Part shown: positions 32,363 to 58,080 of the stretch, piece by piece
How positions within the stretch are numbered: position 1 is the first letter of the stretch
Layout of the letters: the number at the start of each line of letters is the position of its first letter
Source: Syntrophorhabdus sp. PtaB.Bin047
GTDB taxonomy: Bacteria; Desulfobacterota; Syntrophorhabdia; Syntrophorhabdales; Syntrophorhabdaceae
Assembly (NCBI GenBank): GCA_002067235.1
Contig: MVQP01000006.1
Coordinates: 70-64,069 of the forward strand
Direction of reading: 5' to 3'
Length of the DNA stretch: 64,000 nt
The notes under the pieces: generated by a model
What the model was told of the DNA's origin: nothing
What the model saw: the letters and a program-made list of their open reading frames with translations, nothing else
Database searches by the model: none
Program-made: the position numbers and the translations under genes

Positions 32363-33075
32363 CGGGGGCGGTCGTCGCCGTAGTGCAGGCACGGATGGAC
32401 GCGTCGCGCCTGCCGAACAAGATGATGCTGTGGCTGAAGGGCATGCCCGTTGTCGAGTGGGTCTATCGAAGGGTGACGATGTCCGGAATGGTCGACCACG
32501 TTGTCTTTGCGTTGCCTGATACAAGGTCGAACGACGTCCTGGAGGATTTTCTCACAGGCGTCGGCGCCAGTGTATTTCGGGGCAGCGAAACGGATGTGCT
32601 GGGTCGTTTCTATCAGGCCGCGCGCGTCCACGAGGCGGAACAGGTCGTTCGGGTCTGTGCGGACAACCCCTTCGTCTGCGGTTCGGAAATAGACAGGTTG
32701 ATAGAATTTTTCCGGGAAAACGACTATGACTACGCGTACAACCATATACCGCGCAATAACAGGTATCCCGACGGATTGGGCGCCGAAATAGTGCGTTTTC
32801 CGTTGTTGCGTCGGCTCGAAGAGGCTGCGGTTGAGGCGTCACACCGTGAACACATCTTCAACTACATATGGGATAACCGGGACAATTTTCGCATAGGCAC
32901 CTGTGACCCCCTTGATGAAAAGATCGCGTATCCCCACCTGAAACTGGACCTCGATACCCCCGATGATTACGCGTGGTTGTTGAGGCTGCAGGTGAGGCCC
33001 GACATGTCCGCCCGCGAGGTGGTATCGGCGGCACTTTCATACCCCAGGAGCAAGGAAGATGAAAAGACTGGCTGA
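32359..33075 (+). CDS. SpsF/FlmC-type cytidylyltransferase-family protein
   Basis: 238 aa with GTG start. 'VVQARMDASRLPNKMM' and 'VCADNPF' motifs as in SpsF-like proteins. Confidence 0.75.
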   Translation: MTGAVVAVVQARMDASRLPNKMMLWLKGMPVVEWVYRRVTMSGMVDHVVFALPDTRSNDVLEDFLTGVGASVFRGSETDVLGRFYQAARVHEAEQVVRVCADNPFVCGSEIDRLIEFFRENDYDYAYNHIPRNNRYPDGLGAEIVRFPLLRRLEEAAVEASHREHIFNYIWDNRDNFRIGTCDPLDEKIAYPHLKLDLDTPDDYAWLLRLQVRPDMSAREVVSAALSYPRSKEDEKTG

Positions 33076-34123: not shown

Positions 34124-35414
34124 TATCGTCTCGGAGATCGCCTCCTACCTCAGGCGCCTTTTTCCGATATGCCGCAGCATAACGGGAGAGGGAAACCGCG
34201 AGACGCTCCGCATCCTTCAGGAACTGGTGCCGTTGAAGGTCCTGGAATATCCTTCCGGGCAGAAGGTCTATGACTGGACCATTCCCCGGGAATGGAACAT
34301 CAGGGATGCCTGGATAAAGAACGCTTCAGGCGAGAAGATAGTTGATTTCCAGAGATCAAACCTTCACGTTGTCAGTTACAGCATACCCGTCCATGCCCGG
34401 ATGAAAAAAAGGGACCTTGTGGAACATCTCCATTTTCGGGAAGACCTGCCGTCCGCCATTCCTTACAGGACGACCTATTACAAAGAGAACTGGGGGTTTT
34501 GCCTCTCTCACGATGATTACATGAAACATTTCCGTGACGACGAGACGTACGAGGTGTTCATAGACTCGGAATTGAAGCAGGGCAGCCTGAGCGTCGGGGA
34601 ACTGACGATAAAGGGCAGGACGGATAAGGAGTATCTCATATCCACGTATATCTGCCATCCGTCCCTTGCCAACGACAACCTGACAGGCCCGGTGCTGACG
34701 GCATTCCTCGCGCGGGAGCTCCTCAGGGAAAAGACCAATTTCAGCTATCGTGTGGTCTTCGTCCCCGAGACCATAGGGGCGATAGCCTACTGCGCGAACA
34801 ACGAAGAGGCCATGAAGAGGATAGGGACGGGATTTGTCGTGTCGTCAGTGGGAGGTCCGGGCAAGGTTGGCTACCGCCAGAGCTGGCAGAAGGATTCCGT
34901 CGTCAATTCCGTCATCGAGGAGACATTCAGGGAGAAAGGGATTACCGACTACAAGGTCTATCCTTTCGACATACACGGCAGCGACGAGCGGCAATACTCT
35001 TCCCAGGGATTCAGGATCAACATCGCCAGCATCAACAAGGACAGGTTCTATGACTACCCGTACTACCACACCTCGCTCGATGACCTTGATTTTGTATCGG
35101 CTGAGAACGTGGCGTTCTGCCTCGACCTCCATGTTGCCGCACTCAGGAGCCTGGACAGGAACATCGTTTACCGGAACCTTTCTCCCAACTGCGAAGTGAT
35201 GCTCAGCAAACACGGCCTGTATGAGACGACGGGGGGAGGCCAGCTCCCTGTCTTCGGTACAAGGAATCGACAGGATCTCATTCTGTGGCTGCTATTCCAT
35301 TGCGACGGGACGAAGTCGCTGTGGGAGATCTCAAGGCTCCTCGACATGCCCGTCGGTCCGTTGTTCGATCTGGCGGAGGAACTGGCGAAGAGAAATCTCT
35401 TGGTGGAGAGTTAA
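34116..35414 (+). CDS. aminopeptidase-like-domain protein (DUF4910/DUF2172-type) with a C-terminal winged-helix-like tail
   Basis: 432 aa. 'CRSITGEGNRETL', 'YDWTIPREWN', 'ICHPSLANDNLTG' as I remember for this polysaccharide-locus-associated family. Not verified. Confidence 0.55.
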   Translation: MPDIVSEIASYLRRLFPICRSITGEGNRETLRILQELVPLKVLEYPSGQKVYDWTIPREWNIRDAWIKNASGEKIVDFQRSNLHVVSYSIPVHARMKKRDLVEHLHFREDLPSAIPYRTTYYKENWGFCLSHDDYMKHFRDDETYEVFIDSELKQGSLSVGELTIKGRTDKEYLISTYICHPSLANDNLTGPVLTAFLARELLREKTNFSYRVVFVPETIGAIAYCANNEEAMKRIGTGFVVSSVGGPGKVGYRQSWQKDSVVNSVIEETFREKGITDYKVYPFDIHGSDERQYSSQGFRINIASINKDRFYDYPYYHTSLDDLDFVSAENVAFCLDLHVAALRSLDRNIVYRNLSPNCEVMLSKHGLYETTGGGQLPVFGTRNRQDLILWLLFHCDGTKSLWEISRLLDMPVGPLFDLAEELAKRNLLVES

Positions 35415-35487
35415 GGCGCGACGCATTCCCTCCGACCGGTCCACGGAGGAATGCGGTGAGGGCGTGTGGCCCGTGGGCCAGGGAACC

Positions 35488-36966
35488 ATGGAAGACGTTA
35501 TGATGATCAGATTCACTCCGGCGGATATAGATCAGTTCAAGGAGCTGAGCGGGGACGTGAACCCTCTTCACACCGATGAGATTTACGCCAGAAAGACCCC
35601 GTTCGGTGAGAGGGTTGTCTACGGTATACTGGTGCTGCTGCGCGCGATGACGGTCCTGAAGGGGAGGACGATCTTCCTGAAAAAGCTCAAGGTCGATTTT
35701 GTCCGCGCCGCCTTCCCTGATGTCCCGTATTTCGTGAAGGTTTCTGAGGAAGGCGCGGATAAGATAGTGCTGAGAGTATTTGACGGGACGATAAACGTGC
35801 TGAAAGCCGACCTATCCATAGAGATAGGACCCTTGCATGTCCCGGGTGCCTCCGCTGCCGGACAGGTTCAGACCCTGAGGGAGCCGAGGGCCCCGACACT
35901 TGAGGAGATGGGCGGCAATTACTCTTTTTCGGGCCAGTACGGCATGTCCATGCGTCCCGGACGATTGACGGAAGAGCTCAGGTCGCTGGATTGGCTCGGT
36001 GTCTGGCAGCTGGCTGTGATAGTGGGTTCCAGCTATGTTGTTGGAATGGATGTTCCGGGACGGCAAGCGTTGTTTGTCGGAATGGATCTGGAATTCCACC
36101 ATGCGTACCCTGCACGGGGTGTTCTGGAGTACGAAGGGAGTGTCAGGAGGGCCGACGAACGCGTCGGGCTGGTGGAATTCGACTGCAGATACGCAGTACA
36201 GGGGGAGCCCGTAGCCTCCGGAAGGTACAAGACATTCATGCGCCCCGATCGCCGGGTAGATAGCGAGGCTGACTCCGGGGCCGAGGTCCGGGAGATCATG
36301 AAGGGAAGGACCGTGGCGGTGATTGGAGGAAGCAGGGGTATAGGGGCCAGGGTTGCGGAGAGCATGGCCAGACACGGGGCAAACACGATCGTCTGCTATC
36401 AGAAATGCAGCGACGACGCGATGTTTCTCAAAAACAGGTATCCCGGCAGGATCACACTGATGCAGGGTGACGTTTCGAGTATGCCGTGGTGCATGGACCT
36501 GGCCCGCGGGTATCCGGCACTGGACGGGATCGTTCTTTGCGCTTCCCCGGCGATCAAACCGCTGAGATTCGATGTTCACACCGTCGACAGGGTGAGCGAA
36601 TTCATCGAAAGGAGCGTAAGTTTGGTGGCGACGCCCCTTGCGGCATGCATATCCGCCCTGAGCGGGTCGGGAGGAAAATGCATCGTCATGTCCTCAGATG
36701 TCGTGAACCGGCCCTTCGTGGACTGGCCGCACTATGTAGCCGCAAAGTGCGCCATAGAAGGGTTTATCAGAACGGTGAGGCTGCAGTATCCTTCGGTGGA
36801 GTATCACATCCTGCGCCCCCGCAAGGTCCTTACAGACCTGATAAACACCAATATGGGGCGCATCGGCGCGATATCACCGGATCTCATCGCGAAGAAGATA
36901 ACGGAGATCTTCCTGGACGATACACGTTCAGACCACGTCAATATAATCGAGGACTTTGAAGGCTAG
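35488..36966 (+). CDS. MaoC/hotdog-fold dehydratase-like domain(s) fused to a short-chain dehydrogenase/reductase
   Basis: 'FKELSGDVNPLHTD' (MaoC motif). C-terminal SDR 'VAVIGGSRGIGARV' and 'YVAAKCAIEG' (YxxxK). Start at ATG 35488; the upstream 89 codons of the tracked ORF are rejected. Confidence 0.75.
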   Translation: MEDVMMIRFTPADIDQFKELSGDVNPLHTDEIYARKTPFGERVVYGILVLLRAMTVLKGRTIFLKKLKVDFVRAAFPDVPYFVKVSEEGADKIVLRVFDGTINVLKADLSIEIGPLHVPGASAAGQVQTLREPRAPTLEEMGGNYSFSGQYGMSMRPGRLTEELRSLDWLGVWQLAVIVGSSYVVGMDVPGRQALFVGMDLEFHHAYPARGVLEYEGSVRRADERVGLVEFDCRYAVQGEPVASGRYKTFMRPDRRVDSEADSGAEVREIMKGRTVAVIGGSRGIGARVAESMARHGANTIVCYQKCSDDAMFLKNRYPGRITLMQGDVSSMPWCMDLARGYPALDGIVLCASPAIKPLRFDVHTVDRVSEFIERSVSLVATPLAACISALSGSGGKCIVMSSDVVNRPFVDWPHYVAAKCAIEGFIRTVRLQYPSVEYHILRPRKVLTDLINTNMGRIGAISPDLIAKKITEIFLDDTRSDHVNIIEDFEG

Positions 36967-45383: not shown

Positions 45384-46871
45384 ATGAACATATTGCTCGT
45401 CAACGTTCCTTCGAGACGAGGCAAAGGCGGATTCACACTTCCCCTTGGTCTCCTCTATGTGGGGGGCATCGTCGAGAGGTGCGGCCACAGGGCGCGGATA
45501 TTCGACCCCTATCTCTGCGACGCGGACCTTGGCGAGGACATCGTCGCCGCGCTGAGGCGGACGATCGAGGATTTCAACCCCCGCGTTGTCGGATTCGGGG
45601 GGATCTCCACATCCTATGGCAGGGCGAAGGAACTGAGCGCCTCCATACGGCGGGACCATCCGGAAATGGTCATGATAGCCGGCGGGGCGCTGTCCTCCGT
45701 GGCGGATCTTCTGTTGACGAAGACCGATGTCGATGTCGTGTTCCATGGCGAAACGGAGACGAGCCTGCCCGCTTTCCTCGATTCGCTTGAAAAGGGAACC
45801 GGTTTCGCCGGCCTGACCGGGATCTCCTATCGGTCAGCCGATGGAGTGGTCGGGACCCCGCCCGTCGAACAGATCGGCGATCTTGATACGATACCTTTTC
45901 CCGCGTATCACCTTGTGGAGCTCGACAGGTATTTCACTGATGTCAATGACTGGCTCGCGAGCTACGAGGTCAACCTGGAGAACCTGCCCGGCAAGGAAGA
46001 CATCCTCCGGCGGATTGAGGGCAAGAGGCGTTATATCCCCATCGTCAGCTCGCGGGGATGCACACACAGGTGCCTGTTTTGCTACAGGCACATGAAGGGC
46101 CACAGGCAGAACACCGTGGGCTACACGATGGCACACATGAAATTCCTCAGGGAGCATTACGGTGTGGAAGGCTTTCAGTTTTGCGATGAGCTGTTCAACG
46201 CGAAGAGATCCTGGGTCATGGATTTTTGCGATGGAGTGGAGCGCGAGAATCCGGGGGTATTTTACCTGATAGGGGGTGCCCGCGTAGACAGAGTGGATGA
46301 GGAGATGCTCCTGAGGCTGAAAGGAACGGGTTGTATCGAGATAAACTACGGACAGGAGTCCGGTTCCGATACCATTTTGAAGGAGTACCGCAAGGGAACG
46401 ACGGGGCGGCAGAACCGGGACGTCACGATCCTCACGACGAAAAAAGTGGGATTGGCGTGCCCCGTGCAGATCGTTATCGGCTCGCCGGGGGAAACGAACG
46501 ATACGATCGAGGAGACCATAGGCCTTCTCAAGGCTGTCGAGGCATATCAGTACTCCATCAACTACCTCATAGCCCTACCGGGAACACCTGTCTGGGATGT
46601 CGTCGAAGACAGAGGTCTTGTTCCCGATGTGGAAAAATATCTGGACGAGGTCGCCGACGTCGGCGGAGCGCCGCTGATTAACCTCACGACCGTGCCGGAC
46701 GATGTATGGAGGGGCTGGACATCGAGGATCAGGAGGGAGATGAGCATCGAGTACGTGAGGAGAAAGGGCCTCAAGGTCCACGACTTCGTCAATATGATAC
46801 TGATACCGCTCATACCCCGACGGCTCAAGAACATCATCAAGCGTTTACGCGGCCTGTACGGGAGGGGATAA
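45384..46871 (+). CDS. B12-binding-domain radical SAM protein (class B type)
   Basis: N-terminal 'ILLVNVPS...LPLGLLYVGG' cobalamin-binding-like domain. 'SSRGCTHRCLFCY' Cx3Cx2C. Confidence 0.85.
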   Translation: MNILLVNVPSRRGKGGFTLPLGLLYVGGIVERCGHRARIFDPYLCDADLGEDIVAALRRTIEDFNPRVVGFGGISTSYGRAKELSASIRRDHPEMVMIAGGALSSVADLLLTKTDVDVVFHGETETSLPAFLDSLEKGTGFAGLTGISYRSADGVVGTPPVEQIGDLDTIPFPAYHLVELDRYFTDVNDWLASYEVNLENLPGKEDILRRIEGKRRYIPIVSSRGCTHRCLFCYRHMKGHRQNTVGYTMAHMKFLREHYGVEGFQFCDELFNAKRSWVMDFCDGVERENPGVFYLIGGARVDRVDEEMLLRLKGTGCIEINYGQESGSDTILKEYRKGTTGRQNRDVTILTTKKVGLACPVQIVIGSPGETNDTIEETIGLLKAVEAYQYSINYLIALPGTPVWDVVEDRGLVPDVEKYLDEVADVGGAPLINLTTVPDDVWRGWTSRIRREMSIEYVRRKGLKVHDFVNMILIPLIPRRLKNIIKRLRGLYGRG

Positions 46872-46881
46872 GGCAGCAGAC

Positions 46882-48411
46882 GTGTCCAGGATCGCCACCA
46901 TTGGAAGGAACATCAGGTTCACAATCTTGAACCGTGTCGCATCCGTCGCCATCACCTTCTTTCTTTTCCCTTACATAGTCCGGGAATCGGGTCAGGAGGT
47001 GTATGGTGTCTTTCTCCTCGTCACCACAGTGACGGGATACTTTGGCCTCCTTGACCTCGGAGTCATGTCGGCGGTGACGAAGTACGTCTCCGAGTACAAC
47101 GGGAAAGGCGATCCCGCGGCGATCAACAGGATCGTCAGCGCTTCGCTTTCGTTCTATGTGCTCGTTGGTCTCGTGGGGGCGTTGTGCCTTCTAGGGTGCT
47201 CGATATATTTCGACCGTTTCTTCAAGATAGACCCCCGGAATGTCGCCCTGGTCAGGCAATTGTTCATCGTTGCCGCCGCATCTTCATTGCTGACCTGGCC
47301 GCTGAGCATATTCCGGGGAACGGTGCAGGGGTTGAACCGTTACGATGTTGAGGCTGTCGTGAATATTGTGGTGCTTTGCATGAACGCGCTGGGCGCCGTC
47401 ATCGTGTTCGGTACTGGGCGCGGGATAGTCCTTTACTTCACCCTCCTGCAGTCGCTCAACATAGCGGGCTGCATTGTGTTCTATGTTGTGTCGAAAAGGA
47501 TCGCGCGGCTCAAGGTATCCTTTCCGTATCTGGAGACGGAGACCTTCAAGTTCATATTCGGTTTCAGTTCCTTTGTGTTCCTGAGCTCCCTGGGGAACCT
47601 GTTCCTTTTCCAGGCGCACAACTTCATCATAGGATACTTTGTGTCTCTTTCCGCGGTGACGGTATACGCGGTGGCCTACAATATCCAGAACTATTTCCGC
47701 ACCATAAACTCGGCGATCGGAGGGCCGCCGTGGACCGTTGCGTCGGAGATGGAGGGCAGGAGGGATTATGACGGCCAGAGGACCCTGCTGTTCAAAGGGA
47801 CGAAATACATGTCCGCCATCATGGTGCCCGTTGTCCTCATAATGCTGTTCTTCGTGGAGCCCTTTGTCAACCACTGGGTTGGACCCGGTTTCGAAGAGAG
47901 CATCCTCCCGGCAAGGATAATCATACTTTTCTGGCTCCTCAACGGCACCGTGGAACCGGCCTCGGGTATGCTGTCCGCCAAGGGTATTGTGAAGCAGCCG
48001 CTCTACATTCAGATCGGGATGGCGGTATTCAACATACTGGTAGGCCTTGCCCTGATCAAGAGCCTTGGCATAATTGCGATGGCCATAGGGCTGACCCTTT
48101 CTTTCGTCCTGATAGGGGCGCCGCTCAACCTCCGGCTCTCGTTGAAGAGCCTCAATGTTCCCCTGTCGACGTACCTCAAGAGGGCTGTGAAGGGAAACAT
48201 TCCCCTGTACCTTTTCGTGGCGCTCCTTTCTTACTTGGTTTCCAGCAACTGGCAGCCGAAGAGCATCTATTCCACACTGATGGGGATGGGCGCGATATAC
48301 CTGGTTTCTCTGTTTCTGTACTATCTGGCGATCATGAACAGCGAAGAAAAGAGAGAAATAAGAAGGCTGGCGGGCGTAGAAGGCATCTATAACAGGGTCA
48401 CCTCGAGATGA
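46882..48411 (+). CDS. wzx: MOP-superfamily oligosaccharide flippase
   Basis: 509 aa with GTG start. About 12-14 TM segments; N-terminus 'NIRFTILNRVASVAITFFLFPYIV' is typical of Wzx-like proteins. Confidence 0.75.
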   Translation: MSRIATIGRNIRFTILNRVASVAITFFLFPYIVRESGQEVYGVFLLVTTVTGYFGLLDLGVMSAVTKYVSEYNGKGDPAAINRIVSASLSFYVLVGLVGALCLLGCSIYFDRFFKIDPRNVALVRQLFIVAAASSLLTWPLSIFRGTVQGLNRYDVEAVVNIVVLCMNALGAVIVFGTGRGIVLYFTLLQSLNIAGCIVFYVVSKRIARLKVSFPYLETETFKFIFGFSSFVFLSSLGNLFLFQAHNFIIGYFVSLSAVTVYAVAYNIQNYFRTINSAIGGPPWTVASEMEGRRDYDGQRTLLFKGTKYMSAIMVPVVLIMLFFVEPFVNHWVGPGFEESILPARIIILFWLLNGTVEPASGMLSAKGIVKQPLYIQIGMAVFNILVGLALIKSLGIIAMAIGLTLSFVLIGAPLNLRLSLKSLNVPLSTYLKRAVKGNIPLYLFVALLSYLVSSNWQPKSIYSTLMGMGAIYLVSLFLYYLAIMNSEEKREIRRLAGVEGIYNRVTSR

Positions 48412-48445: not shown

Positions 48446-49225
48446 ATGGTCTGCTTGAAAGAGAGGTTAAGGAACGGAGAGGTGCTCGTGGGCTCCTGGA
48501 TCACCCTGGCGCATCCGGCGATCGCCGAAATAATGGCCAGGGCCGGGTTTGACTGGCTGACGATAGACCTGGAACACAGTGTCATAACGATACGCGAGGC
48601 GGAGGAATTGATCCGCGTTATCGAGCTTTGCGGAGTTGCACCCCTGGTGCGGGTCTCGGCGAATGATCCTGTTCAGATCAAACGGGTCATGGATGCCGGC
48701 GCGCATGGGGTGATCGTCCCGATGGTCAATACGCCCGGCGAGGCGGCGGATGCGGTCGCCGCTGTGCAGTATCCACCGGCCGGGAGGCGCGGGGTGGGCC
48801 TCGCGCGCGCACAGGGGTACGGGACGGGATTCCGGCCATACCTGGAATGGCTGAGGGCGGATGCGGTGGTGATCGTTCAGGTCGAGCACGTCGATGCGGT
48901 GAACTGTCTGGAGGATATACTGTCTTTACCGGGTGTGGATGGGTATTTCATCGGACCCTATGACCTGTCGGCATCAATGGGCCTTGCGGGGGAATTTGAC
49001 CACCCGGAGATGGTCGGGGTGCTTGAGCGCATCAAGCGTGCAGGTGAGGATTTCGGAAAGCCGGGCGGCTTACATGTCGTTGAACCCGATACATCGAGAC
49101 TGGAAGAGTGCATAAACCAGGGGTTTCGCTTCATCGCGTACAGTTTGGACACCAGAATGCTGGACAATGCCTGCAGGACGGGGCTTTTAGCCGTCAGGGA
49201 GAGTGGGGCGGGACGCGAAGGATGA
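48446..49225 (+). CDS. HpcH/HpaI-family class II (pyruvate-dependent) aldolase
   Basis: 259 aa. 'GSWITLAHPAIAEIMARAGFDWLTIDLEH', 'IVQVEH', 'FIGPYDLS'. Confidence 0.85.
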   Translation: MVCLKERLRNGEVLVGSWITLAHPAIAEIMARAGFDWLTIDLEHSVITIREAEELIRVIELCGVAPLVRVSANDPVQIKRVMDAGAHGVIVPMVNTPGEAADAVAAVQYPPAGRRGVGLARAQGYGTGFRPYLEWLRADAVVIVQVEHVDAVNCLEDILSLPGVDGYFIGPYDLSASMGLAGEFDHPEMVGVLERIKRAGEDFGKPGGLHVVEPDTSRLEECINQGFRFIAYSLDTRMLDNACRTGLLAVRESGAGREG

Positions 49226-49874
49226 TACTCATCGGGGCAAGTCTCTGGCTGAAAGTGTCTTGTTCCGAGACGCGGGGAGACCTTATAGATTGGCGGACCT
49301 TCTTAAAGACGAATTGAATGATTGGATAGAAGGCTTCGTCAACTGTGTTCCGGGACGTACCGGTTCCATACTGCGACGGGCGTGGTTTAGCCGCAGACTG
49401 GCAGAGCTGGGACCGGGGTCGGTCTTTGAGGGGAGAGTGAGGATCGGGGGGTGCAAGAATATCAGGATCGGCAGGAGTTTTTCGGTCATGTCCAACTCGT
49501 CCCTCTGGGCGTGGAGGGGACATATTGAGATAGGAGATAGGGTATCGATGAACTCGAACGTGATCGTCGATGCCTGTGATGATGGAGTCATCAGGATCGG
49601 CAACGATGTGCTGATCGGACCGAACGTGGTGATGCGGGCCAGCAACCATGTGTACAAGTCGCCCGACAGGCCCATCAACCGGCAGGGACACACGGGGGGA
49701 ACAATAGTCGTGAGGGACGACGTGTGGATCGCATCGAATGTGGTTATTGTTCCAGGCGTGACCATAGGGGAGCATTCCGTGATCTCGGCATGCTCGCTGG
49801 TTTCGCATGATGTTGAACCGTGGACCGTCGTGGGCGGTGTCCCCGCCGCCGTGATCAAACGGCGCGAGCAATGA
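49203..49874 (+). CDS. left-handed beta-helix (hexapeptide) acyl/acetyltransferase
   Basis: Hexapeptide repeats 'IGDRVSMNSNVIVDA', 'IGNDVLIGPNVVM', 'VWIASNVVIVPGVTIGEHSVISACSLV'. Start uncertain; as tracked it overlaps the aldolase gene by 23 nt. Confidence 0.8.
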   Translation: MGRDAKDDTHRGKSLAESVLFRDAGRPYRLADLLKDELNDWIEGFVNCVPGRTGSILRRAWFSRRLAELGPGSVFEGRVRIGGCKNIRIGRSFSVMSNSSLWAWRGHIEIGDRVSMNSNVIVDACDDGVIRIGNDVLIGPNVVMRASNHVYKSPDRPINRQGHTGGTIVVRDDVWIASNVVIVPGVTIGEHSVISACSLVSHDVEPWTVVGGVPAAVIKRREQ

Positions 49875-49891: not shown

Positions 49892-50671
49892 TTGAACATT
49901 CTGGGAATAGTTCCAGCAAGGATGGCCTCGACGCGGTTTCCGAACAAGCCCATGGCGCCCATTCTGGGGATGCCGATGATAGGTCACGTCTATCATCGAT
50001 GCTGGTTATGTCCGAGCCTTTCAGACCTCTGGGTCGCGACCTGCGATCCTGAGATCGTGGAATACGTCGATTCCCTGGGCGGCAAGGCCGTCATGACTGC
50101 TGACACGCATCAGCGCGCCTCCGACAGGGTCGCTGAAGCTCTTCTCAAGATAGAGGCGGCGACAGGCGTTCCCGCAGACTACGTCGCGATGATCCAGGGT
50201 GACGAGCCGATGCTGGACCCCCGGATGATCGAGGAGCTTGCGGCCCCGGTCATGAAGGGCGGCAAGGTTGAGGTCGTGAACCTGATCATGAAGATCGAGT
50301 CCCGCGAGGAATTCGAGAATGCCAATGTTGTCAAGGTCGTGCTGGCCCAGGACGGTTCCGTCCTGTATTTCTCGCGCGAGCCCATTCCTTCCGGCAAGAA
50401 GTTCCAGGGTGACATCCCGATGTGGAAACAGCTGGGCATCATCCTGTTCAGCCGCGGGGCGCTCCTCGAGTACACGAGGATGACGCCCACTCCCCTTGAG
50501 ATCATCGAGTCCGTCGATATGAACCGCTTCCTGGAGCATGGAGTGAAGATCAAGGCGGTGCCTGTGGACTATCGCACTTTCGGGGTGGACATCCCGGGTG
50601 ACGTGAGGCTCGTTGAGCCGCTGCTGCGGGAAGACCCGGTGACCGGCAAGTATCTTCCGGATCGGGGATAA
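49892..50671 (+). CDS. KdsB-like CMP-(keto-deoxy sugar acid) cytidylyltransferase
   Basis: TTG start with AGGAG 7 nt upstream. 'GIVPARMASTRFPNKPM' and 'IQGDEP' are closer to the KdsB pattern than to NeuA. Confidence 0.8.
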   Translation: MNILGIVPARMASTRFPNKPMAPILGMPMIGHVYHRCWLCPSLSDLWVATCDPEIVEYVDSLGGKAVMTADTHQRASDRVAEALLKIEAATGVPADYVAMIQGDEPMLDPRMIEELAAPVMKGGKVEVVNLIMKIESREEFENANVVKVVLAQDGSVLYFSREPIPSGKKFQGDIPMWKQLGIILFSRGALLEYTRMTPTPLEIIESVDMNRFLEHGVKIKAVPVDYRTFGVDIPGDVRLVEPLLREDPVTGKYLPDRG

Positions 50672-50672
50672 C

Positions 50673-51653
50673 ATGAAGGAAGAAGACATCCGCAAACGGT
50701 CCACCCTGAACCGGTACCTTGAGCTTGTCAGGGAAGATGCCGCCAGACTTATCCGGGATGCGTCGGGGTTTCACCGGACCGCCTGTCCGGCCTGCGGCGG
50801 AAATGACCTTGCCCGTCAATTTGAGAAGTACGGCTTTCAGTACGAGCAGTGCAGGGTATGCGAGACCCTCTTTGTGAACCCCCGGCCGAAGTACGAGGAC
50901 CTGATGAGGATATACATCGATTCCCCATCGACACGGTACTGGGTGACGGAGTTCTTCCTTCCCATGGCGGAGACGAGGCGGGAGGTGATCTTCAAACCCA
51001 GGGCCCAATTTGTTGCCGAGCGTTTTCCGGAGGTCAGGTCCGGCAGGACGGCGGATATCGGAGCGGGATTCGGCCTGTTCCTGGAAGAGCTGAAGATACT
51101 CTGGCCCGGGTCGGACGTTGTGGCGATCGAGCCTTCCGTGGACATGGCCGGTATCTGCCGGAGCAAGGGCCTGACCGTGATCGAAGAGAGTCTGGAGGAT
51201 GTCCGGAACGCGGAAGGGTTCGATCTAATGACCGCTTTCGAGCTTTTCGAGCATCTCCATGATCCAGCCCCTTTCGTCGCAAAGGTGCACGAATTGCTGA
51301 GACCCGGGGGTTTCTTCTTTCTCACAACACTGAACGGCCTCGGATTCGATATACAGGTCCTGTGGGAGGGTTCAAAAAGCATCTTCCCCCCCAATCATCT
51401 GAATTTCTTCAATCCCGGCTCTATGGTGACGTTCCTTGAGAACAGGGGGTTTTCGGTGATCGAAGCGGCGACTCCCGGTCAGCTCGACTGGGACATCGTG
51501 GAGGGGCTCTACCGCAATGAAGGGGTCGATCCCGGGCGTTTTTTCAGCACCATTGCGCGGCATGGCACAGAGGATGCGAAGCGGGGTTTTCAGGAGTGGA
51601 TCCGGCGGAACAATTTCAGTTCCCACATGAGGATCATTGCGAGGAAGGTCTGA
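50673..51653 (+). CDS. class I SAM-dependent methyltransferase with N-terminal Zn-ribbon
   Basis: 'CPACGG...CRVCETLF' followed by 'ADIGAGFGLF' motif I. Confidence 0.8.
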   Translation: MKEEDIRKRSTLNRYLELVREDAARLIRDASGFHRTACPACGGNDLARQFEKYGFQYEQCRVCETLFVNPRPKYEDLMRIYIDSPSTRYWVTEFFLPMAETRREVIFKPRAQFVAERFPEVRSGRTADIGAGFGLFLEELKILWPGSDVVAIEPSVDMAGICRSKGLTVIEESLEDVRNAEGFDLMTAFELFEHLHDPAPFVAKVHELLRPGGFFFLTTLNGLGFDIQVLWEGSKSIFPPNHLNFFNPGSMVTFLENRGFSVIEAATPGQLDWDIVEGLYRNEGVDPGRFFSTIARHGTEDAKRGFQEWIRRNNFSSHMRIIARKV

Positions 51654-51654
51654 G

Positions 51655-52683
51655 ATGACGGGAGACACACTGAGAGTCGGGATAGCGGGTTACGGTGTTG
51701 TGGGGAAACGCAGACGGCAGTTCATCGACATACATCCCCGACTGGCGACGGTGGCGGTCTGTGATCAGAATTACGCGGCACCCGGAACGCTTATCGACGG
51801 AGTAAGGGCCTATTCAACGTACAGGCAGCTCCTCGAGGAACCGCTGGACGTGCTCTTTGTCTGCCTGCCGAACTACCTGGCGGCGGAGGTGACGATAGCC
51901 GGACTGGAGAGGGGATTGCACGTGTTCTGTGAAAAACCCCCCGGCCGGAATATCGAGGACGTGCTGGCGGTTCAACAGACAGAGAGGATGCATCCGGGAC
52001 TGGTCCTGAAGTACGGCTTCAACCACCGCTACCACGGTTCTGTTACCGAGGCCCTCAAGATCGTGCGCTCCGGTGAGCTTGGTGACATCATCAACCTCAG
52101 GGGTGTGTACGGAAAGAGCAAGATCATCCCCTTTTCAGGCGGATGGAGGTCAGAGAGGCGTTATGCCGGGGGCGGGGTCCTCCTCGACCAGGGTATCCAC
52201 ATGGTGGACCTGATGAGGCTCTATTGCGGCGATTTTGTTGAGATCAAGAGCTTCGTGGTGAATGACTACTGGAAACATGACGTGGAGGACAACGCGTATG
52301 CCCTGATGCGCAACAAGAAGGGACAGGTTGCCATCCTTCATTCTTCCGCCACCCAGTGGCAGCATCGCTTTGTCCTCGAGATCACCCTTGCGGACGGCTA
52401 TCTCGAACTGCGGGGGATCCTCTCGGGCTCCAAGAGCTATGGGGAAGAGCAGCTCATCGTCGGCAGGCGGGATGAATCCGATGTCGGGACCCTTCGAAGC
52501 GAGACCATCAAGTACCTTGACGATAACTCCTGGCGCGACGAGATCAATGAATTCGCGGACTCGGTCATCCACGGGAAACCGATCCAATCGGGAACAAGCG
52601 ATGACGCTCTGGCCACGATGCGTCTTGTTTATCAGATCTACAACGCGGACCCTCAATGGAAAGCGGCCTTCAACATTGAGTGA
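51655..52683 (+). CDS. Gfo/Idh/MocA-family NAD(P)-dependent oxidoreductase
   Basis: 'RVGIAGYGVVGKRR' Rossmann and the 'CEKP' motif. Confidence 0.85.
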   Translation: MTGDTLRVGIAGYGVVGKRRRQFIDIHPRLATVAVCDQNYAAPGTLIDGVRAYSTYRQLLEEPLDVLFVCLPNYLAAEVTIAGLERGLHVFCEKPPGRNIEDVLAVQQTERMHPGLVLKYGFNHRYHGSVTEALKIVRSGELGDIINLRGVYGKSKIIPFSGGWRSERRYAGGGVLLDQGIHMVDLMRLYCGDFVEIKSFVVNDYWKHDVEDNAYALMRNKKGQVAILHSSATQWQHRFVLEITLADGYLELRGILSGSKSYGEEQLIVGRRDESDVGTLRSETIKYLDDNSWRDEINEFADSVIHGKPIQSGTSDDALATMRLVYQIYNADPQWKAAFNIE

Positions 52684-52702: not shown

Positions 52703-53422
52703 ATGAAGAAGGACCTTCATAACCTCAATGCTCTCGTCACGGGCGGCACAAGGGGCATAGGGCGCGCTATAGCAAAGAGGCTCAGCGACGGTGGAGCAAA
52801 CGTGACGATAACGGGTACGCGACCCGCAAGCCCCTCCCCAGACGGCATCGCCTGCAAGACCGTGGATTTCCTTGATCCCCGCAGCCGGGACGCCTTTGTC
52901 CAGGAGGTGGCGGACATGGACCTCGACATACTCGTGAACAACGCGGGTATCAACAGGATAAGCGATTTCGAGGGGATCGATCCCGCCGATTATGAAAGCA
53001 TATACCAGGTCAATGTCTTCGCCCCCTTCCTCCTGTGCAGGGCCGTCATCCCCGTCATGAAACGAAAGGGGTGGGGCCGGATCGTCAACATAAGCTCCAT
53101 CTTCGGGAAGGTGAGCAAGGAATGCAGGGCGTCATACTCAGCCAGCAAGTTCGCTCTCGATGGAATGACGGCGGCGTTGGCCGCGGAGGTCGCGAGATTC
53201 GGGATCCTGGCGAACTGCGTTGCCCCGGGGTTCGTAGATACGGAGTTGACACGGACCGTGCTGGGAGATGCAGGGATGGCGGAGATGGCCTCAAGGATCC
53301 CCATGGGGCGCCTGGGAACTCCTGAAGAGATAGCCGCTTTCGTCGCATGGCTTGCCGGTCCGGAGAATACCTACATCAGCGGTCAGAACATTGCTGTAGA
53401 CGGGGGTTTTACAAGGGTTTGA
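52703..53422 (+). CDS. short-chain dehydrogenase/reductase (FabG-like)
   Basis: 'VTGGTRGIGRAI', 'NNAG', 'YSASKFAL'. Start at ATG 52703; the longer tracked ORF is rejected. Confidence 0.88.
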   Translation: MKKDLHNLNALVTGGTRGIGRAIAKRLSDGGANVTITGTRPASPSPDGIACKTVDFLDPRSRDAFVQEVADMDLDILVNNAGINRISDFEGIDPADYESIYQVNVFAPFLLCRAVIPVMKRKGWGRIVNISSIFGKVSKECRASYSASKFALDGMTAALAAEVARFGILANCVAPGFVDTELTRTVLGDAGMAEMASRIPMGRLGTPEEIAAFVAWLAGPENTYISGQNIAVDGGFTRV

Positions 53423-53468: not shown

Positions 53469-54437
53469 GTGAAAGACCCGACCGCCGTGGCTGTTGCCTC
53501 ACGATCCTTCTCCCGGCATCCCGTGTTGCGCGAAGAACTCATGTCCCGCTATTCCCGTGTTCGTTTCAATGACTCGGGGGAGACGCTCGCAGGGGAAAAT
53601 CTGGTAGGCTTTCTCGCTGGCTCCGTCAAGGCAATAACGGCCCTGGAGCCTCTTGACGAAAAGACACTGTCCTCGCTGCCGGACCTCAGGGTCATCGCAA
53701 AGTACGGGGTGGGTCTCGACATGATCGATCTTGACGCCATGGAGCGCCTCGGTATATTGCTTGGTTGGACGGGAGGTGTGAACAGGCGCTCTGTGGCCGA
53801 GCTGACCCTTTCATCGATGATCGCCCTTCTGCACAGACTGCCGGAATCAGGCAGCGATCTCAGATCAGGCGTCTGGAGACAGATAAGGGGCAGACAGTTG
53901 ACGGACAAGACTGTTGGTATAATCGGATGCGGCAACATAGGAAAGGACTTGATCATCCTCCTGAAACCATTCGGGTGCCGGATCCTGGCAAACGATATAG
54001 TTGATTACGCGGAATTCTACCGGGAGCATGGAGTGACCCCGGTCGGCCTGGAGGAGTTGCTGAGCAGCGCCGACGTGGTGACGCTGCACGTACCCCTGAA
54101 CGGCTCAACGCGTAACATGATCAACGCCGGGAGCATGGCATTGATGAAGGAAGGCGCATGCTTGATCAACATGGCCCGGGGTGGTCTCGTTGATGAAACT
54201 GGGTTGTTGGAGATGCTTCGGGAGCACCGGCTGGGCGGGGCGGCCCTCGATGTCTTCAACAGCGAACCGCCGGACAATCCCGGGCTTCTCAATCTGCCCA
54301 ATGTCATCGTGACATCGCATATCGGAGGGAGTACGGAGGAGGCGGTCCTGGCAATGGGAAGGGCGGCCATAGACGGCCTCGAGAACGCGGCCAGGGTGAG
54401 CAGCATAGTCCCGGACTACCTGCGCGTGTCGCGGTGA
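53469..54437 (+). CDS. D-isomer-specific 2-hydroxyacid dehydrogenase family protein
   Basis: GTG start. 'VGIIGCGNIGKDL', 'ARGGLVDE', 'TSHIGGST'. Confidence 0.85.
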   Translation: MKDPTAVAVASRSFSRHPVLREELMSRYSRVRFNDSGETLAGENLVGFLAGSVKAITALEPLDEKTLSSLPDLRVIAKYGVGLDMIDLDAMERLGILLGWTGGVNRRSVAELTLSSMIALLHRLPESGSDLRSGVWRQIRGRQLTDKTVGIIGCGNIGKDLIILLKPFGCRILANDIVDYAEFYREHGVTPVGLEELLSSADVVTLHVPLNGSTRNMINAGSMALMKEGACLINMARGGLVDETGLLEMLREHRLGGAALDVFNSEPPDNPGLLNLPNVIVTSHIGGSTEEAVLAMGRAAIDGLENAARVSSIVPDYLRVSR

Positions 54438-54464: not shown

Positions 54465-55079
54465 GTGTGGATGCAACATCTGAGAGAAATGTACAGCAGT
54501 TCAAAGAATGCGTCTGAGTATTTTCGGTCTTACTTTTCGCACATAAGTGACCTCCTGATGGATCTTGATACCGGGGCCATCAACAGCGTCATTGAGTGCT
54601 TCCTGAAGGCGAGAGAGGAGAGGAAGACGATATTCTTTGCGGGTAACGGGGGCAGCGCCGCGACGGCATCCCATTTCGCGCAGGACCTCGGAGAGGTGGG
54701 AAGAAAGGCCGGGAAACGCGGTTTCAAAACGCTGAGCCTCACCGAGAATGTCTCCCTTCTCAGCGCCGTGGGAAACGACTACGGGTTTGAGCAGGTCTTC
54801 ACCGTTCCTCTCGTCGAATTGTTCAACGCAGGGGACGTTCTCGTCGCGATATCGGCAAGCGGCAACAGCCCGAATGTCATCAAAGCCATCGAATTCGCCC
54901 GCGACGCCGGGGGTGAGACGGTGGGTCTCGTCGGATTTGACGGGGGCAGGATGAAAGACATGTGCGATCATGTTATCCACGTGCGGACGGATGTCGGCTC
55001 CTACGGTCCCGTGGAGGATGTGCACATGGCGATGGACCACCTGATCACGTCTTATCTTATCCTGAGGCTTTCCGAATAG
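54465..55079 (+). CDS. SIS-domain sugar-phosphate isomerase (GmhA-like)
   Basis: 'IFFAGNGGSAATASHFAQDL' and 'ISASGNSPNV' as in phosphoheptose isomerases. Confidence 0.8.
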   Translation: MWMQHLREMYSSSKNASEYFRSYFSHISDLLMDLDTGAINSVIECFLKAREERKTIFFAGNGGSAATASHFAQDLGEVGRKAGKRGFKTLSLTENVSLLSAVGNDYGFEQVFTVPLVELFNAGDVLVAISASGNSPNVIKAIEFARDAGGETVGLVGFDGGRMKDMCDHVIHVRTDVGSYGPVEDVHMAMDHLITSYLILRLSE

Positions 55080-55138
55080 ATGAAGCGTCCAGAGAGGACC
55101 GGGTCCGATCAGGTGGGGCGCTCAAGGAGGCATCGCCG

Positions 55139-56242
55139 ATGAAGGCAGATCTGACGATAAGGTCGCACCTGCGGGATTATGGTGTCCATTTCGTTGGAGA
55201 GCTGGCGGTTCCGCTGCGGGAGCTTGCCGACGGACACGCCTTCTTCGTGATAGACGCGCTGGTGTGGAGAACCTACGCCCCGGTGTTTCAGGCTGTGGTC
55301 GGCGAGGATCGCCTCCTGACCATCGAAGCCGTGGAAACGAACAAGACGCTCGACAAATGCCGAGAGATCATTGAAACTCTTGTTGACCGCCGCGTTCGCC
55401 GGGGCGACAGACTGGTCGCGGTGGGAGGCGGGATCATACAGGACGTGACGGCCTTCACGGCTTCCATAACGTACAGGGGGATCGAATGGTCTTTTGTTCC
55501 GACTACACTCCTTGCCCAGGCGGACAGCTGCATCGGGAGCAAGACATCCATCAATCTTGGCGACAGGAAGAATCTTGTGGGTAATTTCTATCCTCCCTCG
55601 GATGTATACATCGACACAGGCTTCCTTGAATCTCTCTCCGTTGATGACATCAAGTCCGGTATCGGGGAGATCCTCCATTATTACATCTACGCAAACGATG
55701 ACGCCCTTGACGATCTGTTGGGGGACTACGCGACCTTGATCCGGGACCGCGGGCTGCTCTCGACGCATATCCGGAGAAGCCTCGAGATCAAGCGCTCCGT
55801 GATCGAGGCAGACGAGTTCGATCGGGGAGAGCGTAACAAGTTCAATTATGGCCATACCTTCGGGCACGCCCTGGAATCCGCTACAGGTTATGCCGTCAAG
55901 CACGGTCAGGCCGTAACGGTGGGAATGGACCTTGCCAACTACATGTCAACGACCATGGGTTTAATGAGTGATGAACGCTTTCAGGACCTCCACCGGAGAC
56001 TGTCTGTCAATTTTCCGGAATACGATCTCGCCACGATCGACCTCGAGGCGTACTGCGAAGCCCTTTCAAAGGACAAGAAGAACATGGGCGATAATGTAGG
56101 ATGCATACTCGCGCAGGACGTCGGCATTCTTTTCAAGCGGCAATTGCCCATGGATGAGACATTCAGGGAAACCGTCCGCAGGTATTTTCTCGAATTCTCG
56201 CCCGGGAAGGACCGGGACGTCCGGCGCGCCGATCCACGATGA
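55139..56242 (+). CDS. 3-dehydroquinate synthase-fold enzyme (sugar-phosphate cyclase / NAD-dependent oxidoreductase family)
   Basis: 'VAVGGGIIQDVTAF', 'KSGIGEILH', 'NYGHTFGHALE', 'KHGQAVTVGM' match the DHQS nucleotide and metal-ligand regions. AGGAGG lies upstream of ATG 55139. Confidence 0.75.
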   Translation: MKADLTIRSHLRDYGVHFVGELAVPLRELADGHAFFVIDALVWRTYAPVFQAVVGEDRLLTIEAVETNKTLDKCREIIETLVDRRVRRGDRLVAVGGGIIQDVTAFTASITYRGIEWSFVPTTLLAQADSCIGSKTSINLGDRKNLVGNFYPPSDVYIDTGFLESLSVDDIKSGIGEILHYYIYANDDALDDLLGDYATLIRDRGLLSTHIRRSLEIKRSVIEADEFDRGERNKFNYGHTFGHALESATGYAVKHGQAVTVGMDLANYMSTTMGLMSDERFQDLHRRLSVNFPEYDLATIDLEAYCEALSKDKKNMGDNVGCILAQDVGILFKRQLPMDETFRETVRRYFLEFSPGKDRDVRRADPR

Positions 56243-58080
56243 TCCGTCTTTGCCACGCGGCGGTATCGTCCGCAACGCTCAAAAGGAAGAGGTTCTTCAG
56301 GGAAACGGGCGATTCCGGCCAATGGCTGTACCTGGGACGGGACTACCTGTGCTTCAGAAATTGGCGGCAGGCCCTGGGGCCTTCATGGGAGCACAGGGAA
56401 TACAGCAACGAACTGCAGTCCCTGGCCCATAAGTGGCGCGTGCCCTACCTTGACTGGGTCACCGGGCTTGGAAGGAAGAACAACACTCTGGCATGGTGGA
56501 CCTCGTCCGTCTCGGAGCGGAACACCTACGGCAGTTCCCTCTATCATTCGATCTGCTACCTCAGCATCGGGCTTTCCGTGCTGGCCTCGGAGAGACCTCC
56601 CTCGCTGGTTGTGATCGAGAGCTCCGCCGTGCTTCATGCTCTTGCGGGGCATCCAGATCTTGCGGGAAGGGTGCATGTGCTGGATTCGCGAACCAACCGT
56701 CTGAAGGAGATGTGCCGATGGATAGCGTCGTGGGCCCGGTACTTCATCAGGACGGCGGGGTCAGTCTGGAACGCATACGTGACCAGGAGCCCGGGCGCAA
56801 CCCCGGAGGAGGAGAAAGACCGGCCAAGGGTGCTTATCCACACCTGCATAGACGATAGCTACTTCGGAGAGGACGGCGTTGCGAGGGACCGCTACTTCGG
56901 GACATTGGCCCGCGAGCTTCGCCACCGCGGTTACGACGTTGTGGTCCTGCCGTGGATATACAGCCTGCGGCGTTCCCAGCGCGAGGCCTTCCGATGGTTC
57001 CGGCAACATCCCGGGGAGTACCTCCTGCCTGAGGATTTTTGCTCCCCCCGGGACTACGTCTGGGCCGCGGGGATCGTTATGCGACAGAGCTTCATGCTGA
57101 AGGGACAGCACGTTTTTCTCGGAATGGATATCACGGGGCTTGTTCGGGAGGCCTGCCGGCAGCAGGGAAGCAGGACGGAGACCGCGAGGTTCGTTCTTTA
57201 CTACAGGTTGGTGCGGCACCTCCTGAACCGCCGGGTGCGGTTGGACCGCTTCATAGACATGCATGAGAACATGGTCACCGAAAAACCCCAAATAATGGCT
57301 TTTCGCGAGTTTATGCCCTGGGTCACGCTTGTCGGTTTCCAGCACTACAGCGAGAGCATTCCCCTCATGCTGTGCCTGTTCACCACGCCGGAGGAGGCCG
57401 AATTTGCTCCTCACCCGGACTACATCGTATGCAATTCGCCGCACATGCTTTCCAGGATGGAGCAGATGGGTTTTCCCCGGGATAAGCTCAGGGCAGGTCC
57501 GTCACTGCGTTACCAGCATCTGATTGGCAAACCGGCGTCCGCCGCCCCCGAAAGTAAAAAGGTCCTGGTGGTCCTGCCCCTGGGCAGGGACTATACGGCT
57601 GAGATGATGGACCTTCTTCTGGAGGGTTTCAGGGAACCGGAGGGTCTGGAGTTCTGGTTGAAACCTCATCCCATGCTTGACGAGAAGGAACTACGGACGA
57701 TCACCAGGGGTATTCCGGAGCATTTCAGCGTGGTAGAGGGCAATATGGACCAGTGGCTTGCGCGGGCCGCATGCGTCGTGGTCTCCGGCAGTACCTCTTC
57801 CTTTGAGGCGGCGCTTGCCGGCATACCTGTCGTGGTGGTGGGCAGGAGGACGGATCTTGATCTCAACCCGCTCAGCTGGTTCTCCGAGTTTGCGCCGGCC
57901 GTACACTCACCGGCGGAGCTTCGGGACGAGGTGTTGCATTCTCTGAGCCTGACCGGGAAGCAGATGGGCGCTCTGAGCGCCTGGGCCGAAAAGATGCGTG
58001 AACGCGCCATCTCGGCGATCACGGACGAGACCGTGGGGGCCTTTATGGAACAGCGGGGTGAAAAGAGGCGTGCATCATGA
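56239..58080 (+). CDS. large hypothetical protein with a GT-B-like C-terminal half (candidate glycosyl/ulosonic-acid transferase)
   Basis: 613 aa with ATGA overlap to the DHQS-like gene. The C-terminal 'KKVLVVLPLG...ACVVVSGSTSSFEAALAGIPVVVVG' pattern resembles the nucleotide-sugar-binding Rossmann half of GT-B enzymes. Confidence 0.45.
   Translation: MIRLCHAAVSSATLKRKRFFRETGDSGQWLYLGRDYLCFRNWRQALGPSWEHREYSNELQSLAHKWRVPYLDWVTGLGRKNNTLAWWTSSVSERNTYGSSLYHSICYLSIGLSVLASERPPSLVVIESSAVLHALAGHPDLAGRVHVLDSRTNRLKEMCRWIASWARYFIRTAGSVWNAYVTRSPGATPEEEKDRPRVLIHTCIDDSYFGEDGVARDRYFGTLARELRHRGYDVVVLPWIYSLRRSQREAFRWFRQHPGEYLLPEDFCSPRDYVWAAGIVMRQSFMLKGQHVFLGMDITGLVREACRQQGSRTETARFVLYYRLVRHLLNRRVRLDRFIDMHENMVTEKPQIMAFREFMPWVTLVGFQHYSESIPLMLCLFTTPEEAEFAPHPDYIVCNSPHMLSRMEQMGFPRDKLRAGPSLRYQHLIGKPASAAPESKKVLVVLPLGRDYTAEMMDLLLEGFREPEGLEFWLKPHPMLDEKELRTITRGIPEHFSVVEGNMDQWLARAACVVVSGSTSSFEAALAGIPVVVVGRRTDLDLNPLSWFSEFAPAVHSPAELRDEVLHSLSLTGKQMGALSAWAEKMRERAISAITDETVGAFMEQRGEKRRAS

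Follow-up and report, generated by a model that had tools for sequence, protein, structure and literature searches.

An AroB-related gene in a Syntrophorhabdus surface-glycan locus belongs to a widespread cassette that may make a CMP-activated acidic sugar

What is a gene of the dehydroquinate synthase (DHQS) fold, the fold of the shikimate-pathway enzyme AroB, doing beside a GmhA-like isomerase gene in a bacterial polysaccharide locus? The question is raised by a stretch of 64,000 nucleotides (hereafter the window) from Syntrophorhabdus sp. PtaB.Bin047 (GenBank assembly GCA_002067235.1, contig MVQP01000006.1, positions 70 to 64,069 of the forward strand), for which a first-pass annotation had proposed that the gene pair supplies either a heptose or a carbocyclic (cyclitol) unit to a glycan. 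The analysis described here identifies the DHQS-fold protein, from its sequence, as an AroB paralog tied to a surface-glycan locus, with a predicted phospho-lyase activity, and places it in a conserved set of five enzymes that is almost always joined to a cytidylyltransferase forming cytidine monophosphate (CMP) sugars. What we establish is family membership, aroB paralogy, the active-site pattern and the gene association; every substrate and product discussed below is one that we infer from them. The two genes at the center of the question are:

54471-55079, plus strand: GmhA-like SIS protein (202 amino acids; SIS_2)
55139-56242, plus strand: predicted AroB-related sugar-phosphate phospho-lyase, dependent on nicotinamide adenine dinucleotide (NAD+) and metal (367 amino acids; TIGR04425)

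Both genes are real by the strength of their family matches, which are far beyond chance (SIS_2, E=4e-16; TIGR04425, E=6.6e-129), and the motifs listed in the first-pass annotation are where it had placed them, GNGGSAATASHFAQDL inside the SIS open reading frame (ORF), and 'GGGIIQD', 'GEILH', 'GHTFGHALE' and 'HGQAVTVGM' inside the DHQS-fold ORF. For the SIS gene the most likely start is ATG 54471, which has GGAGG ahead of it, rather than GTG 54465. The DHQS-fold gene starts at ATG 55139, with AAGGAGG just 5' of it and a product equal in length to its homologues; a start elsewhere in the long ORF 54962-56242, which overlaps the SIS gene, was set aside in favor of this ATG. Both Pfam domains of dehydroquinate synthase are present in the product (DHQ_synthase N domain, E=1e-34; C domain, E=4.5e-31).

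At the level of curated families, the DHQS-fold protein passes the TIGR04425 cut-off (429.9 bits vs. 400, over model positions 1-346 of 348, a result confirmed on the genome) and falls under that of the aroB equivalog TIGR01357 (261.9 bits vs. 305). NCBIfam describes TIGR04425 as a hypothetical equivalog under the name 'AroB-related putative sugar phosphate phospholyase (cyclizing)'. The window gene is, by sequence, a clear member of this curated family with a predicted function. The active site was compared at 14 sites (numbered as in A. nidulans DHQS) in an alignment of the window protein and 16 homologues with reference enzymes (ValA, Ava_3858, Amir_2000, BtrC, KanA, RifG and several DHQS) taken from the source data of PMC4426668. 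The TIGR04425 family reads R130, D146, K152, N162, E194, H197, K250, R264, F267, N268, H271, H275, H287 and K356 at these sites. The window protein thus retains 12 of the 14 DHQS residues, and its two exceptions, K197H and L267F, are invariant across the 17 family members. Retained are the phosphate site (R130, K152, N162, H275 and K356) and, likewise, K250, R264 and N268; the list of ligand sites and their roles (K197 and others) follows the literature on PDB 1DQS. Absent are the fingerprints of EEVS (M250, D268, P275, V356) and DDGS (M250, D264, A268, P275), the DOIS signature (G264, E268, N356, against R264, N268 and K356 in the window protein) and the EVS residue R356 (K356 here).

A maximum-likelihood tree leads in the same direction. 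The TIGR04425 proteins, 20 sequences including the window protein, form a clade with support of 100/100 on a long stem (1.66), nested in a 100/98 group with DHQS, aDHQS and DOIS, outside EEVS, DDGS and EVS and separate from the canonical aroB of relatives. The AlphaFold model (predicted local distance difference test, pLDDT, 84.8) finds its best fold matches in DHQS (TM score 0.78-0.83), followed by DOIS, ValA and DDGS. The kinship with sedoheptulose 7-phosphate (S7P) cyclases that had been suggested for this protein is therefore not borne out: the residue scoring against DHQS, DOIS, EEVS, DDGS and EVS, proposed at the time as a check, returns a DHQS-type pattern with K197H and L267F, the carboxylate/phosphate pocket of DHQS is kept, and the branch lies on the DHQS/aDHQS/DOIS side.

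Could the gene then simply be the organism's aroB, a housekeeping 3-dehydroquinate synthase that sits in a glycan locus by chance? It retains the residues that bind 3-deoxy-D-arabino-heptulosonate 7-phosphate (DAHP)-type substrates, and no other aroB-like gene was found in the genome, a 3.64-Mb, 89% complete assembly closest to an uncultured Syntrophorhabdus (92% identity). A sole aroB-like gene grouping with true AroB had been named as the outcome that would speak for such a role; the gene is indeed the only one of its kind, yet it stands outside the AroB clade of the relatives and under the aroB equivalog cut-off. The absence of shikimate genes nearby, noted in the first pass, holds and extends to the whole 89% complete genome, in which a search found neither chorismate synthase (aroC) nor a second aroB nor a type II DHQ synthase. 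The last of these, considered as an explanation for the missing aroB, was also not found in 30 relatives. Canonical aroB and aroC occur in the identical 13 of these 30 relatives, about 4 kb apart, and this co-variation indicates that a shikimate operon occurs in the group as a unit or not at all. Among same-genus genomes, 12 of 18 hold no aroB, aroC or type II DHQ synthase, several of them being 98-100% complete, which points to auxotrophy for aromatic amino acids or to an unknown route. Where the TIGR04425 gene and a canonical aroB can be looked for side by side, both are present: in three relatives with a TIGR04425 match (two above the cut-off and one, at 394 bits, just below it) and in five named carriers, Leptospira alexanderi, Mucilaginibacter rubeus, Dyadobacter luticola, Hydrosulfovibrio ferrireducens and a Bacteroides metagenome-assembled genome (MAG), so that a separate canonical aroB accompanies it in all eight other carriers tested. 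A housekeeping role, which the first-pass annotation had already thought improbable, is scarcely credible in view of these observations.

The gene's constant company is more informative. The core genes of the window that recur with it, and the cytidylyltransferase gene upstream of them, are:

49892-50671, plus strand: KdsB-like CMP-forming cytidylyltransferase (CTP_transf_3; PF02348, E=1.8e-44, 152.5 bits)
51637-52683, plus strand: Gfo/Idh/MocA NAD(P) oxidoreductase, core member (PF01408, PF22725, PF02894)
52703-53422, plus strand: short-chain dehydrogenase/reductase (SDR), core member (adh_short_C2, E=3.8e-50)
53469-54437, plus strand: D-2-hydroxyacid dehydrogenase, core member (PF02826, E=1.6e-54)

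A pattern scan with one genome per species returned at least 398 carriers of the cassette, spread over Syntrophales, six Leptospira species, Mucilaginibacter, Dyadobacter, Bacteroides/Prevotellaceae, Omnitrophota, Chloroflexota, Gemmatimonadota and archaea. For the best 80 loci, neighbors were counted in flanks of 10 kb around the AroB-like gene, and the counts depend on these flanks and on the BLAST thresholds. An SDR gene accompanies the AroB-like gene in 78 of the 80 loci, a 2-hydroxyacid dehydrogenase gene in 72, a Gfo/Idh/MocA oxidoreductase gene in 71 and a SIS isomerase gene in 67. A CTP_transf_3 cytidylyltransferase was detected by tblastn in 43 of the 46 loci with full flanks, and clustering added two more. 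An HpcH aldolase gene is less regular (39/80 loci, or 31/46 with full flanks and two more just beyond the flank), and no HpcH homologue was found genome-wide in Mucilaginibacter rubeus, Leptospira weilii or a Mucilaginibacter MAG, all of which carry the core and the cytidylyltransferase. Thus, the conserved gene set is a five-enzyme core (Gfo/Idh/MocA oxidoreductase, GmhA-like SIS protein, dehydrogenase resembling D-3-phosphoglycerate dehydrogenase (PGDH), SDR and AroB-like enzyme), and the HpcH aldolase is dispensable.

Clustering of all ORFs of the loci resolved two architectures. Type I, that of the window, comprises HpcH, KdsB-like cytidylyltransferase, methyltransferase, Gfo-type oxidoreductase, SIS, 2-hydroxyacid dehydrogenase, SDR, AroB-like and a TIGR04326-like gene for a protein of about 600 amino acids. 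Type II, found mainly in Bacteroidota, runs through 2-hydroxyacid dehydrogenase, Gfo-type oxidoreductase, SIS, SDR and AroB-like genes to DUF386/YhcH, a NeuA-like CTP_transf_3 gene, a PF04199 'cyclase', HpcH and an MptE/Maf-like protein, the DUF386/YhcH gene lying between the AroB-like and cytidylyltransferase genes. In most homologous loci the SDR gene is directly upstream of the AroB-like gene; the order in the window differs, with the 2-hydroxyacid dehydrogenase and SIS genes between the two. The window's Gfo-type, SDR, 2-hydroxyacid dehydrogenase, SIS and AroB-like genes and the 613-amino-acid gene that follows them follow one another on the same strand at spacings of -4 to 59 nucleotides; the SDR gene among them starts at ATG 52703, preceded by GGGGAAGG. 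The nearest solved structures to the Gfo/Idh/MocA protein are myo-inositol 2-dehydrogenase and glucose-fructose oxidoreductase, and the top PDB matches of the 2-hydroxyacid dehydrogenase are all PGDH catalytic cores (E=7e-45). The window cytidylyltransferase passes the cut-off of the KdsB subfamily model NF009905 (272.3 bits vs. 255) and stays under that of the strict kdsB equivalog TIGR00466 (141 bits vs. 155); the whole genome has three CTP_transf_3 genes, this one included.

The near-constant partnership with a KdsB/NeuA-type cytidylyltransferase points to a CMP-activated acidic sugar, and it is this context that a choice between heptose and cyclitol misses. Together, the CMP-forming enzyme, the glycosyltransferase-like partners, the DUF386 protein of type II loci (which we take to be a NanQ-like sialic-acid anomerase) and the dispensability of the aldolase call for a product with an anomeric alpha-keto-acid centre. 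We tentatively favor, at somewhat less than even chances, a cassette that makes a CMP-activated acidic sugar for a surface glycan by way of hept-2-ulosonate 7-phosphate and a phosphate elimination. A C7 sugar phosphate, S7P, already named in the first pass as a substrate of GmhA and of one branch of the cyclases, is judged the most plausible starting point. The SIS isomerase would convert S7P to a heptose 7-phosphate, the Gfo-type enzyme would oxidize C1 to give heptonate 7-phosphate, and the PGDH-like enzyme would oxidize C2 to give hept-2-ulosonate 7-phosphate, which is an analogue of DAHP with a 3-OH and an inverted C4. The AroB-like enzyme, with bound NAD+ and metal, could then proceed in the manner of DHQS through oxidation at C5, elimination of the 7-phosphate and re-reduction; the SDR would reduce the resulting keto group, and activation by the cytidylyltransferase and transfer would follow. 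In this proposal each core enzyme would be used once.

Several features of the core agree with such an order. Both the SIS protein, by its phosphate loop, and the 2-hydroxyacid dehydrogenase, by its relatedness to phosphoglycerate dehydrogenases, fit upstream of a phospho-lyase, on phosphorylated intermediates. Since HpcH is absent from three carrier genomes that hold the core and the cytidylyltransferase, the keto acid must come from the core itself. Vitamin B6 synthesis offers a precedent for the two proposed oxidations, as Epd and PdxB turn an aldose phosphate first into the aldonate phosphate and then into a 2-keto acid phosphate. Hept-2-ulosonate 7-phosphate as the substrate would explain the retention of the DHQS acid and phosphate pocket, and its 3-OH and inverted C4 relative to DAHP would account for the K197H and L267F exchanges near the sugar ring. 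A position-197 change is also found in the aminoDAHP enzyme RifG, an analogy that hints at a DAHP analogue altered near C4 as the substrate.

Other observations weigh against this route. The enol-pyranose intermediate of DHQS cyclizes spontaneously, so a non-cyclized product would need a special capture of the intermediate. EVS enzymes act on S7P and nevertheless show the DHQS fingerprint except for K356R, hence the 'carboxylate' residues are no proof of an acid substrate. The sequence in which the three oxidoreductases act is guessed, the route leaves HpcH, the PF04199 'cyclase' and the occasional C-terminal inositol-monophosphatase (IMPase) fusion unexplained, and in the literature searched we found no assay of TIGR04425 or of any other cassette enzyme.

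The first of these objections belongs to a rival that keeps the chemistry of the DHQS family whole, namely that the enzyme is a true cyclase, which completes the DHQS-type aldol step to a carbocyclic, quinate-like polyhydroxy acid or makes a C7 cyclitol straight from S7P, the SDR then reducing the carbocycle ahead of its incorporation into the glycan or attachment to it. The cyclitol reading of the first-pass annotation is this one, and it would be natural for a protein that retains all DHQS catalytic and ligand residues save K197 and L267, that has DHQS as its best fold match, whose characterized relatives are all cyclases and whose family name contains the word 'cyclizing'; the self-cyclization of the enol-pyranose intermediate fits as well. 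The IMPase-family domain at the C-terminus of some TIGR04425 proteins (P0070, P0074, P0076; L014:10001-11902; about 635 amino acids in total) could be read as a further hint, although the fusion is rare (2/80 loci); as a clue to a cyclitol phosphate we rejected it for this rarity and for the generic nature of the domain. The fingerprints of EEVS, DDGS, EVS and DOIS are lacking, and genes for a CMP-forming KdsB/NeuA-type cytidylyltransferase and a glycosyltransferase-like protein nearly always accompany the AroB-like gene. CMP chemistry needs an anomeric alpha-keto-acid centre, which cyclization would destroy, and the aldolase that would be able to rebuild it is missing from some carrier genomes. 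On balance we think a true cyclase, and with it a carbocyclic product, somewhat unlikely. Because the product is passed to a CMP-forming enzyme, we lean slightly toward a non-cyclized end product, a 7-deoxy-heptulosonic acid that keeps its alpha-keto-acid centre, over a carbocycle.

An acid sugar could also be reached by an aldolase, in a route resembling that to 3-deoxy-D-manno-octulosonic acid (Kdo): HpcH would condense pyruvate with an aldose phosphate supplied by the SIS protein to a 3-deoxy-2-ulosonate phosphate (an epimer of DAHP or a compound like Kdo-8-phosphate), the AroB-like enzyme would remove the phosphate, and the dehydrogenases would only tailor stereochemistry. The frequency of HpcH in full-flank loci, the KdsB-like character of the window cytidylyltransferase and a DHQS pocket suited to a 3-deoxy acid would all agree with this, but whole genomes with the core and the cytidylyltransferase do without HpcH, and the strictly conserved PGDH-like dehydrogenase would be left without a clear role. 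Chemical reasoning adds that the phosphate of an 8-carbon substrate is not beta to an oxidizable ring carbon, and we regard this route as improbable. The heptose half of the original dichotomy fares worse still. It would make the SIS protein a working GmhA that feeds a derivative of GDP- or ADP-heptose, with the DHQS-fold enzyme as an unrelated neighbor. The nearest solved structures to the SIS protein are, indeed, phosphoheptose isomerases (E=4e-28), but it scores 117.6 bits with the gmhA model TIGR00441, well under the cut-off of 209.45, and in 60 of 61 cassette-linked family members the catalytic Glu is replaced by Asp and the metal-site Gln by Glu, the catalytic His (59/61) and the phosphate loop SxSGNS being retained. 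Its gene accompanies the AroB-like gene in most loci, as counted above, and a second, more canonical GmhA (180 bits) is encoded elsewhere in the genome, on another contig (G000:C13:18162-18614 and downstream), where a single ORF joins it to a GmhB-like HAD phosphatase with the motif VVFLDRDGVIN; this fusion is likely the genome's housekeeping heptose route. Neither a heptose kinase nor a heptose nucleotidyltransferase appeared in Pfam and NCBIfam scans of the ORFs at 39792-62634 (Pfam only for the methyltransferase ORF at 41050-41781). A nucleotide-heptose product is very unlikely.

The remaining genes of the run, and those that flank it in the window, are:

48446-49225, plus strand: HpcH/HpaI-type class II pyruvate aldolase, accessory member (PF03328, E=7.7e-39)
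49203-49874, plus strand: hexapeptide-repeat acetyltransferase, local accessory (PF00132; WcaF/WbbJ-like matches under cut-off)
50673-51653, plus strand: class I S-adenosylmethionine (SAM) methyltransferase (Methyltransf_23; PF13489, E=5.9e-21)
56239-58080, plus strand: 613-amino-acid TIGR04326-like protein, predicted GT-B fold (ATGA overlap with the AroB-like gene)

The top NCBIfam matches of the HpcH protein, HpaI and GarL, are under cut-off. The acetyltransferase gene, whose true start is probably later than 49203, has counterparts in 8 of the 80 loci; the methyltransferase gene has them in 24 of 80 and is frequent in type I cassettes. The 613-amino-acid protein matches TIGR04326 under cut-off (79 bits), its DUF6716 and Capsule_synth matches are weak, and a PDB sequence search with it gave no match. 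Its AlphaFold model (pLDDT 78.5) has Foldseek matches to GT-B glycosyltransferases and UDP-GlcNAc 2-epimerases (E ~1e-8), and the modeled fold makes it a putative transferase for the cassette product; since these matches are only to a generic GT-B fold, a CMP-sugar donor is not demonstrated by the fold.

Upstream in the same locus, the window holds a second, separate CMP-acid-sugar route (28441-35414), which includes:

28441-29523: iron-containing alcohol dehydrogenase
29520-30707: DegT aminotransferase
32359-33075: NeuA-like CTP_transf_3 protein
33059-34123: NeuB synthase

This route also contains a 551-amino-acid protein with no Pfam match and a DUF4910 protein; its alcohol dehydrogenase/aminotransferase pair (28441-30707) presumably resembles KdnB/KdnA of 8-amino-Kdo synthesis. 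The segment from 35221 to 48411 is dense in tailoring genes, among them those for a MaoC-SDR fusion, an AAC(3)-like N-acetyltransferase, a radical SAM/SPASM enzyme, a LIC12162-family transferase (TIGR04331, cut-off passed), a NodU/CmcH-type carbamoyltransferase, a B12-binding radical SAM enzyme and a Wzx-like flippase. Housekeeping genes fill the first 26 kb of the window, where a BadF/BadG/BcrA/BcrD-family ATPase gene (8578-9357) adjoins one for an acyl-CoA dehydrogenase and fits an anaerobic, aromatic-degrading, Syntrophorhabdus-like host.

CMP-activated acidic sugars (Kdo and the sialic, pseudaminic and legionaminic acids) shape the recognition of bacterial surfaces by hosts and phages, and to our knowledge every known route to them has a condensing enzyme dependent on phosphoenolpyruvate (PEP) or pyruvate. 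The chemistry of the TIGR04425 cassette may therefore be new. It is close to an even chance, in our estimate, that the cassette makes a class of sugar new to glycans, either a carbocyclic ('carba') analogue of a 2-ulosonic acid or a 7-deoxy-hept-2-ulosonic acid, CMP-activated for surface glycans. Oxidation of S7P, in place of a condensation with PEP or pyruvate, would build it, a DHQS paralog would eliminate the phosphate, and the sugar would occur across hundreds of species, Leptospira, Bacteroidota and archaea among them. If this is true, a condensation-independent route exists in at least 398 species-level genomes, a paralog of a shikimate enzyme has taken on an unprecedented job, and a new sugar can be expected from Leptospira O-antigen loci, from surface-glycan loci of Bacteroidota and gut-type MAGs, and from many uncultured lineages. 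There is also a practical consequence for genome annotation, in that public TIGR04425 copies are widely auto-named '3-dehydroquinate synthase', which can place a false aroB step in pathway reconstructions of genomes that, as here, seem to be without the pathway. Our literature searches found nothing on TIGR04425, and nothing relevant on dehydroquinate synthase in combination with O-antigen/cyclitol, HpcH/cytidylyltransferase, Leptospira rfb or phosphoheptose isomerase; a recent resource reports new CMP-linked higher-carbon acids and nothing on an AroB-like cassette (SugarBase, bioRxiv 2026).

Set beside known systems, the window protein shares with AroB (TIGR01357; PDB 1DQS, 3OKF, 5HVN) the fold, the NAD loop and the metal ligands E194, H271 and H287, and differs from it in its separate clade and long branch, in K197H and L267F and in the lack of linkage to shikimate genes. 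The aminoDHQ synthase RifG is likewise altered at position 197 (K to R, vs. K to H in the window protein); the two are not sisters in the tree, and the context of the window protein is a glycan cassette, not the biosynthesis of 3-amino-5-hydroxybenzoic acid (AHBA). The S7P cyclases EEVS (ValA), DDGS (Ava_3858) and EVS (Amir_2000) have the superfamily and the cofactor logic in common with it and fall outside its 100/98 group, whereas DOIS (BtrC, KanA) shares the superfamily and the side of the tree and differs in signature. From its own family, TIGR04425, the window protein differs in no respect, sharing the H197/F267 signature and grouping with 19 other members. The SIS protein resembles GmhA (TIGR00441; PDB 1TK9) in its fold, in both phosphate loops (GNGGS and SxSGNS) and in its catalytic His, and departs from it in its sub-cut-off score and in the family-wide changes of Glu to Asp and Gln to Glu. 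At the level of the whole cassette, the closest parallel is the Kdo pathway (KdsD, KdsA, KdsC, KdsB), which has in common an isomerase, a sugar-acid phosphate, the loss of that phosphate and a KdsB-like CMP activation; the cassette contains no condensing enzyme of the PEP-dependent KdsA/NeuB type and no HAD phosphatase, and in the proposed route oxidation would instead yield the keto acid and elimination would release the phosphate.

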